Positions 2,024 through 5,608 of a stretch of DNA of 6,664 nucleotides are shown one piece after another. The stretch comes from a virus (Duplodnaviria; Heunggongvirae; Uroviricota; Caudoviricetes). How positions within the stretch are numbered: position 1 is the stretch's first letter; every line of letters begins with the position of its first letter. The stretch lies in IMG/VR virus record IMGVR_UViG_2526164633_000050. One strand, written 5' to 3'. The translations under genes and the position numbers were made by a program. A model generated the notes under the pieces. It was not told the origin of the DNA, made no database searches, and worked only from the letters and a program-made list of their open reading frames with translations.

Positions 2024-2254
2024 TTAATGGAGTTTGTTTTGCTGCTGGAAGAGTTGTTGCAGCTCGCGCAGATCATCCGCCAGATAGCTGAAAACAGAGG
2101 CGGAATAGATGTTCGATAGCGCGTGGCTGCGCTCATGCAGCATATTGATGTGCATGATTTGCGCGACGCGTGATGCGCGGAAAAGTCTACGGTTGATTTC
2201 AGTCTGGATGTGACGACGCGCAGCGTATGCGCGCTGTTGTTTGCGGTTTGCCAT
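2024..2254 (-). CDS. hypothetical small basic protein (76 aa, Arg/Lys-rich N-terminus)
   Basis: ATG at 2254 preceded by AAGAGG with about 8 nt spacing; stop TAA 2026..2024. Sits downstream of the minus-strand terminator and a putative promoter in 2390-2425. Confidence 0.5.
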   Translation of the reverse strand: MANRKQQRAYAARRHIQTEINRRLFRASRVAQIMHINMLHERSHALSNIYSASVFSYLADDLRELQQLFQQQNKLH

Positions 2255-2431
2255 GGTGTGGCCTCTTTGCTCGGTGATAGAAATAGCTCACCATCCAGAG
2301 TTGAGAATCTCGGGGTGGCGAGACGTACAGGGTTCTCAACACCGGAGAGCAAAGAATCCGGCCCGACCGAAGTCGGCCCCGTACGCCCCGCCATAATTCT
2401 GACGCGAAAAAGACGTGGCAATACAGTACGC

Positions 2432-2456
2432 ACAAAAAAACCGCTGGCGCGGTTAT
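2432..2456 (-). terminator. putative rho-independent terminator (minus strand)
   Basis: Minus strand reads AACCGC-GCCA-GCGGTT (perfect 6-bp stem, 4-nt loop; + coords 2439-2454) followed by a 7-T run (including the two stem Ts) then GTG (A-run at + 2434-2440). Lies about 120 nt downstream of the ORF ending at 2577. Confidence 0.5.
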
Positions 2457-2526
2457 GCGCTTTGCTCTGTATCGGGTTGAGAATCCCGGCACCCGTTTTA
2501 TGAGGTGCAGCGGAAATGTAACCTGA

Positions 2527-2555
2527 CCGATTGCGGCATGGCAAGCGGTTTTTTT
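2527..2555 (+). terminator. putative rho-independent terminator (plus strand)
   Basis: CCGATTGC (2527-2534) / loop GGCATG / GCAAGCGG (2541-2548): 7 of 8 pairs with one A-G mismatch, followed by TTTTTTT (2549-2555). No convincing plus-strand gene lies upstream. Confidence 0.45.
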
Positions 2556-2576
2556 GTGTGTGCATGTTCTGGTTTC

Positions 2577-5210: not shown

Positions 5211-5305
5211 GTGATAATCTCCCTGTTTGGGGTATTTCTTGCGACGGATGCCCCAAATCAAACTCATTTGTATAAACATTAATACAGACGTTGGAGAATT
5301 GCAAC
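5211..5305. promoter_or_regulatory. putative lysis-lysogeny switch region (divergent early and repressor promoters with inverted-repeat operator candidate)
   Basis: 95-bp gap between divergent cox-like and C-like genes. Inverted repeat TTTGGGG (5226-5232) / CCCCAAA (5251-5257) with 18-bp spacer. Candidate leftward promoter TTGCAA (5299-5304), 17 nt, TAATGT (minus; + 5276-5281). Candidate rightward -10 TATAAA (5271-5276). Promoter calls are pattern matches only. Confidence 0.45.
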
Positions 5306-5608
5306 ATGCGTATGACTATTGGAGAGCGCATAAAAATCATGCGTGAAAGCGAGAGACTTACTAGCCTCCCGGATACAGCAAAAATGCTTGGTTTAAACCG
5401 TGATGCTCTGTGGAGATATGAAAGCGGTAAAACTATCCCTAATGCTGAAGTAATTGAGCAAATACTAAACAACCCCAGATTTGAGAAATATGCGTTGTGG
5501 TTTATGACTGGGAAAATTGCGCCTGAATCCGGGCAGATAGCTCCGGCTCTCGCACACTATGGGCAAGAGCCAACGGACTTACCCCCATCCGAAAGGAAAA
5601 TTGGCTAA
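5306..5608 (+). CDS. P2 C-type immunity repressor (about 100 aa)
   Basis: ATG at 5306 preceded by GGAGA at 5293-5297; ORF-track start 5291 is 15 nt upstream in frame. N-terminal HTH-like region and the block YALWFMTGKIAPESGQIAPALAHYGQ resemble remembered P2 C repressor. Immediately upstream of the integrase on the same strand, as in P2. Confidence 0.8.
   Translation: MRMTIGERIKIMRESERLTSLPDTAKMLGLNRDALWRYESGKTIPNAEVIEQILNNPRFEKYALWFMTGKIAPESGQIAPALAHYGQEPTDLPPSERKIG

Follow-up and report, generated by a model that had tools for sequence, protein, structure and literature searches.

The region between positions 2255 and 2576 of the window (the whole 6,664-nt stretch of the viral record IMGVR_UViG_2526164633_000050 that was analysed here) is part of a P88-like (P2-like) prophage and lies in its early operon, with a 76-aa gene of the epsilon family, a 129-aa gene and the replication gene A downstream of it. 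The flanking genes are of the P2 type, namely integrase, a C-like HTH protein, Cox, the replication endonuclease A and ParM, and the phages nearest to the host element are P88 and Xuanwuvirus. The C-type repressor of the prophage is located at 5291-5608. Judged by these P2-type flanks, as against the satellite set of alpha primase, sid, delta and psu, the host element does not fall into the class of P4-like satellites. In this window gene A is interrupted at about 1308 by an IS66-family element, and the switch described below may therefore be vestigial here. The 322-bp region itself is widespread: it was matched over at least 80% of its length in 1158 of the 5426 complete E. coli genomes. RefSeq annotates at this place either nothing or an 'ash family protein', and our literature search, which was limited in reach, found no paper on this module in P88 or P2-like phages.

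The 76-aa gene (2024-2254, minus strand) encodes a member of the 'derepression protein' family of P4 epsilon (Pfam PF25738). Its product scores 31.5 bits against the PF25738 Derepression model (cut-off 27) and matches P4 epsilon in BLASTP with 33% identity over 51 aa (E = 4e-9), and related phages annotate its homologue as 'derepression protein'. By analogy with P4 and P1, this would be the first gene under the control of an RNA switch, and its product is a putative anti-repressor. The initial annotation, made from the letters of the sequence, had named a small RNA and a structured 5' UTR for the 76-aa gene among the possible roles of the region. The general idea was sound, but the specifics, that is the strand and the RNA, were not.

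On the minus strand, positions 2508-2434 match the isrK family of Rfam (RF01394) with 62.8 bits (GA 50) over model positions 1-77 of 77. This isrK-type leader RNA corresponds to the PLE leader of P4 and carries the equivalent of seqA. It folds into hairpin 1 (2508-2489) and hairpin 2 (2488-2473), the loop of which exposes seqA-a, GGGAUUCUCAACCC (2487-2474); seqA-b, AGAGCAAAG, is located at 2468-2460. The leader ends in an intrinsic terminator detected by the terminator scan (stem 2454-2439, U-run 2440-2434), the equivalent of P4 t1. Its stem and U7 are invariant across the relatives, and the stem and T-run agree with the minus-strand terminator that had been noted earlier. The promoter scan places an internal promoter of the constitutive type, equivalent to P4 PLE, at 2515-2555 on the same strand, with a -35 TTGCCA (2544-2539), an 18-nt spacer, a -10 TACATT (2520-2515) and an A7 tract (2555-2549) ahead of the -35 that is possibly an UP element. 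Transcription is predicted to start 7 nt past the -10, at G2508, where position 1 of the isrK model falls. Among the 44 related phage variants that made up our covariation sample, the promoter hexamers are constant in all 44, apart from a single change immediately 3' to the -35; the 18-nt spacing is kept in every variant checked, and the spacer sequences diverge. TTGCCA-18-TACATT (2544-2515) is the only invariant promoter of the region and was overlooked in the initial annotation. The minus-strand promoter-like site that was proposed instead, TTGCCA-17-AATTAT (2421-2393), is present, with its -35 degraded in 16 of the 44 relatives, and could act as a separate feed for the synthesis of the C4 RNA.

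The C4/CI-type antisense RNA occupies positions 2398-2311 of the minus strand, where the C4 family of Rfam (RF01695) is matched with 78.5 bits (GA 45) over model positions 1-87 of 87. A 17-bp closing stem across 2393-2316 encloses two stem-loops. Stem-loop 1 (2376-2363) has the UUCG loop of the hairpin previously seen at 2363-2376 on the minus-strand RNA, and the loop of stem-loop 2 carries b', UUCUUUGCUCU (2356-2346). The segment seqB/a', GUUGAGAACCC (2340-2330), is single-stranded. The RNA has an MFE of -47.6 kcal/mol (z = -4.9), and its MFE fold is the Rfam consensus structure. Among 43 distinct relatives, 98.3% of the cells at C4-internal pairs are paired, with compensatory changes at 5 pairs.

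The repeats of the region fall within these elements. The 10-mer GTTGAGAATC, to which the initial annotation had drawn attention, occurs exactly at 2300-2309 and 2476-2485 and as an inverted copy with one mismatch at 2331-2340. The claimed enrichment holds (chance expectation of 0.41 matches per window, with three matches reached in 3 of 200 shuffles), and a search for further copies, run within the window, returned none. Likewise, 2300-2307 and 2333-2340 are complementary over 8 bp, and the match widens to 14 nt at 86%. The direct copies of GTTGAGAATC are the P4-style targets seqA and seqC, and the inverted copy is seqB in the C4 RNA. A second complementary triple, AGAGCAAAG / CUUUGCUCU / GAGCAAAGAGG, had been overlooked. 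On the minus strand, seqC comprises the target seqC-a (GAUUCUCAAC, 2300-2309), complementary to seqB, and the target seqC-b (GAGCAAAGAGG, 2262-2272), complementary to b' in loop 2 of the C4 RNA. The latter holds the Shine-Dalgarno sequence AGAGG of the 76-aa gene, 7 nt ahead of the ATG at 2254.

Covariation across the relatives, which had been suggested as a check on these motifs, is strong for both pairings of the C4 RNA with its targets. For the seqA-C4 helices (a and b), 96.3% of the cells are paired and 10 of the 20 pairs are changed on both sides; none of 500 shuffles was as good, and slid registers gave 34-55%. For the C4-seqC/SD helices, a and b taken together, 94.6% are paired and 9 of 18 pairs are changed on both sides. 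The G-U wobbles, which replace GC by GU in 16 rows and UA by UG in 13, are compatible with minus-strand RNA only. We distinguished six a-types and 13 b-type sequence combinations, or about 11 once near-identical ones are merged, and in a 10x10 cross matrix the cognate duplex is the most stable in every row. A scan of genome contigs with the 76-aa protein yielded 3 loci only and little extra diversity. As judged from these alignments, the copies of the 10-mer constitute a code for RNA-RNA pairing, because changes in the inverted copy are met by complementary changes in both direct copies.

The region had been described as lacking a convincing ORF, but a conserved 205-aa minus-strand ORF (1948-2565 in the ORF list) crosses all of it. 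Its ATG (2565-2563) is located 11 nt past the TAA stop of the upstream 99-aa gene. The ORF covers the promoter, the leader, the C4 RNA and seqC, overlaps the 76-aa gene out of frame, and ends in a TGA (1950-1948) that shares bases with the ATG (1951-1949) of the 129-aa gene, forming ATGA. Its frame is that of P4 eta: position 1 of the isrK model lies at an offset of 57 nt here and 120 nt in P4, and position 1 of the C4 model at 167 and 305 nt, respectively, so that the frame matches at both RNA elements despite a 72-nt difference in the spacer between them. The eta-like frame has no stop before roughly the same end point in about 80 of 90 unique variants, and the other frames close early; part of this openness reflects shared ancestry, since the variant sequences are 85-100% identical. 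In most variants with an open eta-like frame the stop overlaps the next start codon (ATGA). Against the Pfam model Phage_ASH (PF10554) the 205-aa ORF aligns over model positions 1-102 of 107 with 19.3 bits, under the 26-bit cut-off, and P4 eta scores 82.2 bits against the same model. The Icd/Kil-like C-terminus, which in P4 eta is represented by residues 161-208 matching NF033153, is absent from the 205-aa ORF. A candidate -1 frameshift site in the eta-like frame, A AAA AAC (2555-2549), was discarded; the hairpin follows without a spacer, and the -1 frame stops at about 17 codons.

Overall, region 2255-2576 very likely constitutes the regulatory part of an antisense-RNA immunity cassette of the P4 type. 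This type of cassette goes by several names: seqA/CI/seqC with eta is the P4 designation, Rfam terminology gives 'IsrK-C4', and P1 has c4 with a1b1/a2b2. The features first taken for a noncoding hub are parts of one known minus-strand system, the phage P4/P1 switch, which is already well studied. The class of mechanism is known, and the cassette shows no new kind of mechanism. Family membership, the RNA structures, the conserved promoter, the three-way covariation and the conservation of the ORF are established by the present analysis.

The similarity to P4 is extensive. The parts follow each other in identical order, the isrK and C4 models of Rfam matching P4 in the same order upstream of epsilon. 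The promoter-to-leader geometry (PLE) agrees as well, and so does the two-segment complementarity, in which the second segment lies over the Shine-Dalgarno sequence of the first gene (in P4, UUCACAGG / CCUGUGAA / UUCACAGGAGG). P4 likewise has a long ORF that runs in the same frame from upstream of the internal promoter through the leader, and likewise an epsilon-family gene downstream. There are, however, several differences. The cassette resides in a satellite in P4 but in the early operon of a P2-like phage here; the spacer between terminator and C4 RNA is 35 nt here compared to 107 nt in P4; and the first controlled gene here is epsilon-like, a Kil/Icd-like gene being absent. The long ORF here is out of frame with the first gene and has an ATGA overlap with the next one. 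The specificity sequences are different, and the cargo is a P2-type replication gene A here, whereas it is the alpha primase in P4.

The immI region of P1 and P7 encodes an RNA of the same Rfam family (C4) as the one described here. In these phages, the a' and b' segments of c4 recognize the targets a1b1 and a2b2, situated upstream and downstream of the RNA gene and followed by icd-ant. The downstream target occludes the RBS of the first gene of the anti-repressor operon, and heteroimmunity arises via changes in the short segments. Compared to P1, taken here from its description, the putative anti-repressor of our cassette is epsilon-like and 76 aa long instead of Ant, and an icd-like gene is absent. 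IsrK and C4 have been equated with P4 seqA and CI as an 'IsrK-C4 immunity system' (PMC3632133, PMC4825925). The same order of an isrK leader, a C4-like RNA and an anti-repressor-type gene is found in Gifsy-1 (IsrK/STnc1160-orf45-anrP) and in Stx2 phages, and in Gifsy-1 lysogens both IsrK and STnc1160 are expressed at high levels (PMC7067206). Unlike the cassette described here, the lambdoid versions have no long eta-like ORF (in L132 and L181, frame 0 extends without a stop only between -21 and +147), and they lack the A7 tract and the inverted repeat. The model published for IsrK in Gifsy-1 also differs, being activation in trans and not repression. Hfq binding and a trans-acting function are counted among the features of the isrK family.

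A working model for the cassette can be assembled from these parts, with RNA processing, the termination mechanism, translation-driven escape and the function of the 76-aa protein as an anti-repressor carried over from P4 and P1. In a lysogen, the internal promoter (2544-2515) is predicted to start an untranslated leader at about 2508, and most leader transcripts would end at the terminator (2454-2434), giving an isrK-like RNA of about 75 nt. Transcripts that read through would be processed, by RNase P and PNPase as in P4 and P1, into a stable C4/CI RNA of about 80 nt (approximately 2393-2316) with two exposed segments, b' (loop 2) and seqB/a' (multiloop strand). By pairing with seqA (a and b) in the nascent leader, these two segments would strengthen termination, resulting in autoregulation. 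By pairing with seqC (a and b) they would cover the Shine-Dalgarno sequence of the 76-aa gene and block its translation, and this block would in turn lead, as in P4 and P1, to premature termination ahead of the anti-repressor gene and those that follow it, gene A among them. No Rho-dependent site was identified downstream, which counts against the proposed mechanism. Transcripts from the upstream early promoter would include the ATG at 2565, and the eta-like ORF would be translated across the leader. With ribosomes crossing the whole leader, such transcripts may escape the terminators, as has been shown with PLL and eta in P4. There, transcripts initiated upstream no longer respond to immunity when eta is translated (Forti 1999, as summarised in PMC10111431).

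The best surviving alternative is an activation of the IsrK type, in which the leader RNA (2508-2434) remodels the read-through transcript in trans and renders the first downstream gene translatable. The isrK part would then serve as an activator and be more than a target or attenuator. This could coexist with C4-mediated repression, and we regard it as possible though rather unlikely. The leader matches the Rfam isrK model along its entire length, and since seqA-type and seqC-type sequences are the same, free leader RNA could titrate the C4 RNA. The Gifsy-1 study proposes trans activation for IsrK, with IsrK and the C4-like STnc1160 having complementary sequences (PMC4825925). But activation in trans is not required by the sequence, in that pairing of the C4 RNA with both targets explains all of the covariation, and the downstream gene is epsilon-like here compared to orf45-anrP in Gifsy-1. 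In addition, Briani et al. (2000) reportedly found the P4 leader terminator to be an autoregulatory stop, which also argues against it.

Another possibility is a long-range antiterminator. In transcripts begun at the upstream early promoter, ACACACAAAAAAACCGCUUGC (2561-2541) would base-pair with positions 2448-2428, which comprise the U-run and the 3' half of the leader terminator, and termination would be confined to transcripts from the internal promoter. The two arms form a 21-nt inverted repeat (2541-2561 / 2428-2448) that is 90% complementary, and the MFE structure of the 2580-2425 RNA takes the long-range helix over the terminator hairpin (-51.4 kcal/mol, z = -4.0). The core ACAAAAA(AA)CCGC is present in all classes of the upstream junction, and in the relative L055 one A and one T have been lost together. 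However, the partner of the upstream arm is the half of the terminator that is made last, so the arm cannot kinetically pre-empt the local hairpin with its 4-nt loop. Past about 13 nt the arm is not conserved (variants include TTCTCAC and GACGATAC) and shows no compensating changes. The arm shares its position with the A-tract and -35 of the invariant promoter as well as with the opening codons of the eta-like ORF, and either overlap would explain its conservation; the versions in P4 and the Stx phages lack it, and ribosomes on the eta-like ORF would unwind the helix. Although thermodynamically favoured, such an antiterminator is thus quite unlikely on grounds of kinetics, partial conservation, and coincidence with the promoter A-tract and the ORF start.

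The initial annotation had favoured the opposite strand, with a small RNA of about 120 nt starting from CTGACG-17-TACAGT (2399-2427), ending at a plus-strand terminator at 2527-2555 and antisense to the leader. A T7 run does follow a hairpin of -8.4 kcal/mol there, and the plus-strand 2428-2562 RNA is stable (-62.5 kcal/mol, z = -5.2), as a mirror of the minus-strand structures and the inverted repeat. At one C/T polymorphism the pair is kept, as G-U, in the plus sense only. The terminator hairpin is nevertheless weak, mismatched and unreported by the terminator scan; its sequence coincides with the A-tract and the -35 of the minus-strand promoter and makes up the 5' arm of the 21-nt inverted repeat with the leader terminator. 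In relatives the hairpin drops to -4.6 to -6.2 kcal/mol, adopts other shapes or is separated from the T-run by a gap. The supposed pair of convergent terminators is accordingly one real leader terminator and a promoter/A-tract that resembles a terminator on the other strand. The plus-strand promoter matches 8 of 12 positions, under the threshold of the scan, and among the relatives its -35 reads CGTGTG in 15 of 44, with a changed -10 in 9 of 44. Both Rfam RNAs, the isrK-like and the C4/CI-like, are on the minus strand, and the plus strand returned no family except CRISPR-DR33 (2431-2467), a match at chance level given its E of 0.46 and a score below gathering. With its promoter unconserved, its hairpin weak and variable, and support from RNA families absent, the plus-strand small RNA was rejected as highly improbable. 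The least probable reading of all is that the 10-mers are DNA sites (operators or iterons) for a prophage regulator or replication protein: there are three copies in 190 bp, two direct and one inverted, near gene A and adjoining a MarR-type regulator gene, but the inverted copy changes in relatives to the complement of the direct copies, unlike a shared operator read on the other strand, the minus-sense-only G-U wobbles and the one-base seqA/seqB offset in every type are signatures of an RNA duplex, six or more versions of the 10-mer occur in nearly identical phages with unchanged neighbouring regulator genes, and every copy sits where the Rfam models place it, so that this proposal of the earlier description was rejected on the covariation pattern and the wobbles.

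As a P4-type RNA immunity switch, the cassette is very common in E. coli, and naming it as such corrects the RefSeq annotation. Many P2-like prophages probably have a two-layer immunity, with the C repressor and, in addition, an antisense RNA over the epsilon-family anti-repressor and gene A. The co-varying specificity types are a compact example of the diversification of a short RNA 'address', and they could guide work on heteroimmunity and on helper-satellite conflict. We further suggest, tentatively and with more doubt than confidence, that phages of the P88 type, the helper class of P4, carry the immunity and derepression cassette of the satellite itself as a layer of RNA immunity, with two diversified address segments (at least 6 x 11 types in nearly identical phages), incompatibility groups and a new read-through route. 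If this is true, the RNA layer would gate the epsilon-like anti-repressor and gene A as a second immunity, and the out-of-frame eta-like ORF together with the promoter/terminator inverted repeat would represent a new passage for early-operon transcripts. The re-assorted addresses would then define RNA-based incompatibility groups that serve in the competition among P2-like prophages, or against P4-like satellites.

An Rfam scan of the entire window at the curated gathering (GA) thresholds gave two full-length matches on the minus strand: isrK (RF01394) at 2508-2434 (62.8 bits, GA 50) and C4 antisense RNA (RF01695) at 2398-2311 (78.5 bits, GA 45). Satellite phage P4 (NC_001609) has the same two matches in the same order over its PLE leader and CI RNA, which precede kil/eta and epsilon. 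IsrK has been described as a "structural homolog" of the P4 SeqA RNA, with STnc1160, a processed C4-like RNA, downstream of it (PMC4825925), and homologous RNAs are abundant in Gifsy-1 lysogens (PMC7067206). From these matches and the equivalence with P4, the motifs first noticed here by eye can be assigned to parts of the two RNAs and to the P4-style elements seqA (leader target), seqB (C4 RNA segment) and seqC (target before the first gene). Two exact copies of the 10-mer GTTGAGAATC lie at 2300-2309 and 2476-2485, with an inverted copy carrying one mismatch at 2331-2340 and no further copy in the window; 0.41 matches are expected by chance, and three were reached in 3 of 200 shuffles. The copy at 2476-2485 is seqA, in the hairpin 2 loop of the leader, and that at 2300-2309 is seqC; the inverted copy is seqB and lies on the unpaired multiloop strand of the C4 RNA. 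The 8-bp complementarity of the first two copies was likewise recovered. The UUCG hairpin (2363-2376) is C4 stem-loop 1, and the minus-strand terminator (stem 2454-2439 plus a T-run) is the leader terminator, corresponding to P4 t1 (reportedly described by Briani et al. 2000).

A second repeat triple had been overlooked: AGAGCAAAG at 2468-2460 (minus sense), its complement within 2356-2346, and GAGCAAAGAGG at 2272-2262. P4 shares this two-segment layout: UUCACAGG lies in its leader, CCUGUGAA in the loop of CI, and UUCACAGGAGG at the Shine-Dalgarno (SD) sequence of kil. An Stx2 phage shares it too, and it is also how P1 c4 is organised (a'/b' with a1b1 and a2b2). The specificity polarity is reversed relative to P4 (window 2330-2340; P4 2160-2175 and 1940-1955): the C4 RNA of the window has UUGAGAAC, resembling the P4 target seqA (GUGAGAAC), and its targets have UUCUCAA, resembling P4 seqB (UUCUCAC). 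Stx2-converting phages, represented by vB_EcoP_phi346 (PV189404; L084:2440-2800), have a homologous isrK and C4 module (~71% identity to window 2261-2507). It belongs to the PL operon, where it precedes a 215-aa "transcriptional regulator" and kil/gam/recT, with neither a crossing long ORF nor the inverted repeat at the A7 tract discussed below.

Pairing between the C4 RNA and its targets was examined in 80 viral loci encoding the 76-aa protein, plus loci found by a C4-core DNA pattern, yielding an alignment (A1) of 44 distinct control regions. Between seqA (a+b) and the C4 RNA, 96.3% of cells were paired, with both sides changed in 10 of 20 pairs; none of 500 shuffles reached this value, and slid registers gave 34-55%. 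Between the C4 RNA and seqC (a+b, including the SD), 94.6% were paired and both sides changed in 9 of 18 pairs (slid registers 42-50%), and for the internal helices of both RNAs the figure was 98.3%, with five pairs changed on both sides (slid registers 36-47%). Several pairs switch between G-C and G-U or between U-A and U-G among relatives, alternations that fit only RNA pairing in the minus-strand sense. The b2 target holds the Shine-Dalgarno sequence, 7 nt before the ATG at 2254. Six "a" types and 13 distinct "b" combinations (~11 once near-identical ones are merged) were found, and the two segments re-assort, locus L050 joining the "a" of one group with the "b" of another. When duplex energies were compared in a 10x10 matrix, every row had the cognate C4-target duplex as its most stable, for upstream and downstream targets alike. 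One relative, L017 (81-396; A1 columns 229-245), carries a 17-nt insertion in C4 loop 2, which holds two different b' segments in tandem, the window type followed by that of L026; the arrangement resembles an intermediate of recombination between specificity types, and the insertion, not being a multiple of three, would break the long reading frame described below.

Transcription of the leader would start from a predicted minus-strand promoter, TTGCCA-18-TACATT (2544-2515), whose hexamers are constant in the 44 relatives and whose 18-nt spacing is kept while the spacer sequence depends on lineage. Its predicted start, G2508, lies 7 nt past the -10 and coincides with isrK model position 1, matching the geometry of P4 PLE. 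The minus promoter of the initial annotation, TTGCCA-17-AATTAT (2421-2393), is present in the window, but its -35 is degraded (TCGCCA or similar) in 16 of 44 relatives, and its start would fall within the C4 closing stem. The plus-strand promoter of that annotation, CTGACG-17-TACAGT (2399-2427), has only 8 of 12 matches, with the -35 lost in 15 and the -10 altered in 9 of the 44; the hairpin of the supposed plus-strand terminator is weak (-8.4 kcal/mol here, -4.6 to -6.2 in relatives, with differing shapes) and was not reported by a terminator scan of the window. It mirrors the -35 region of the conserved promoter and the A7 tract just upstream, and is most likely a non-functional by-product of both. 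The region would be a source of small RNAs, as had been suggested, though on the minus strand, and is very probably not a protein-binding hub.

The suggestion that the region holds no convincing ORF does not stand. A 205-aa minus-strand ORF runs from ATG 2565, which precedes the internal promoter and lies 11 nt past the 99-aa gene's stop, to TGA 1950-1948, crossing the leader, the C4 RNA and seqC and overlapping the 76-aa gene out of frame; its stop overlaps the ATG of the 129-aa gene (1951-1949) as ATGA. The P4 equivalent is eta, a 214-aa ORF whose C-terminal part is Kil, with an Icd-like C-terminus. P4 eta scores 82 bits against Pfam Phage_ASH and the window ORF 19.3 bits, below the cut-off; the RefSeq label "ash family protein" in this region refers to this eta-like ORF. 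The ATG lies 57 nt (window) and 120 nt (P4) from isrK position 1, both multiples of three, and 167 and 305 nt from C4 position 1, both 2 modulo 3, so that the window ORF shares the eta frame at both RNA elements although the spacer between them differs by 72 nt. This frame is open in ~80 of 90 distinct variants, starting beside or fused to the upstream gene and ending at an about constant point, with the stop in most open variants overlapping the next start codon (ATGA); the remaining two frames are closed within 8 to 307 nt. L036 and L054 combine a +1 insertion in seqA with a -1 deletion just before seqC (A1 columns 96 and 286), so the ORF regains frame and still ends at ATGA. In L099 (2278-3390; also L119, L173, L205 and L207), the frame is open ~550 nt farther upstream, giving a 370-aa ORF, apparently a fusion of the eta-like ORF with another coding region upstream; the A-tract is A5 and the promoter spacer unrelated.

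In P4, as outlined in a passage of PMC10111431 (citing Forti et al. 1999), a constitutive promoter is internal to eta. The same passage states that its transcript is soon terminated via CI and seqA interactions and processed to CI, whereas eta translation prevents termination and upstream-initiated transcripts read through. By analogy, we infer that the same translational escape may operate here, which would explain how early-operon transcripts pass the leader terminator to reach gene A. An RNA antiterminator as the alternative route past the terminator is very unlikely. A 21-nt inverted repeat (2561-2541 versus 2448-2428, 90% complementary) flanks the leader RNA gene, one arm at the promoter A-tract and the other at the terminator U-tract. 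In the minimum free energy fold of an upstream-initiated RNA it dominates and displaces the terminator hairpin. However, its partner is the last-synthesised half of the terminator, so the arm cannot pre-empt the local hairpin; moreover, the repeat is conserved over only ~13 nt, coincides with the promoter A-tract and ORF start, and is absent from P4 and the Stx-phage version. Besides an antiterminator, an inverted duplication of a terminator half and an UP element are candidate origins or functions of the repeat, both homopolymer runs of which are one base shorter in L055. The A7 tract (2549-2555, minus) reads A AAA AAC in the eta-like frame, a classical -1 slippery heptamer adjoined by the hairpin at 2548-2527; with no spacer between the two and a -1 frame that closes after ~17 codons, it is probably a coincidence.

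The window covers the early part of a P2-like prophage of the P88/Xuanwuvirus type, not a P4 satellite; UMNF18 is among the related strains in which the prophage adjoins pheA. The integrase (from 5642) and a C-like HTH repressor (5291-5608) are on the plus strand. The minus-strand early operon comprises Cox-type and other small ORFs, a MarR-type wHTH protein (3139-2873), the 99-aa ORF (2876-2577), the control region, the 76-aa gene (2254-2024), the 129-aa gene (1951-1562) and the P2-type replication endonuclease gene A, cut at ~1308 by an IS66-family (ISCro1) element. Sequence places the 76-aa protein in the "derepression protein" family of P4 epsilon (Pfam PF25738, 31.5 bits versus a cut-off of 27; 33% identity to P4 epsilon, BLASTP E = 4e-9). 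Within the 99-aa gene, AAATGCCAGT is an exact 10-nt direct repeat (2793-2802 and 2835-2844, 42 nt apart), of the two-copy kind that often arises by chance. The ISCro1-like element occupies 1-1308, with a 379-aa transposase ORF at 139-1278. Since gene A is reduced to its first ~95 codons (1592-1305, minus strand) and related prophages align only from 1308 onward, this copy is probably replication-defective. P88 is inducible by mitomycin-C, and the paper describing it is silent on the module (PMC5285337).

All components have counterparts already described in P4, P1 or Gifsy-1, and curated RNA models recognise the locus. In the literature consulted, we found no account of the cassette immediately before gene A in the early operon of a P2-like phage, of an epsilon-like first controlled gene (in place of kil/icd) with an out-of-frame eta-like ORF, or of how far the specificity types vary in combination. 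The internal promoter, active in the lysogen, would yield the short leader RNA, and transcripts that read through would be processed to the C4/CI RNA. The latter would pair with seqA, making termination autoregulated, and with seqC and the SD, blocking translation of the epsilon-like gene with polar effects on the 129-aa gene and gene A. Jointly, these interactions would form a second, RNA-based immunity layer; in the lytic phase, early-operon transcripts translated through the eta-like ORF would escape. Processing and the mode of termination are proposed from homology, as is the putative anti-repressor activity of the 76-aa protein. The cassette is common in E. coli: of 5426 complete genomes, 1158 contain a match to 80% or more of the region.
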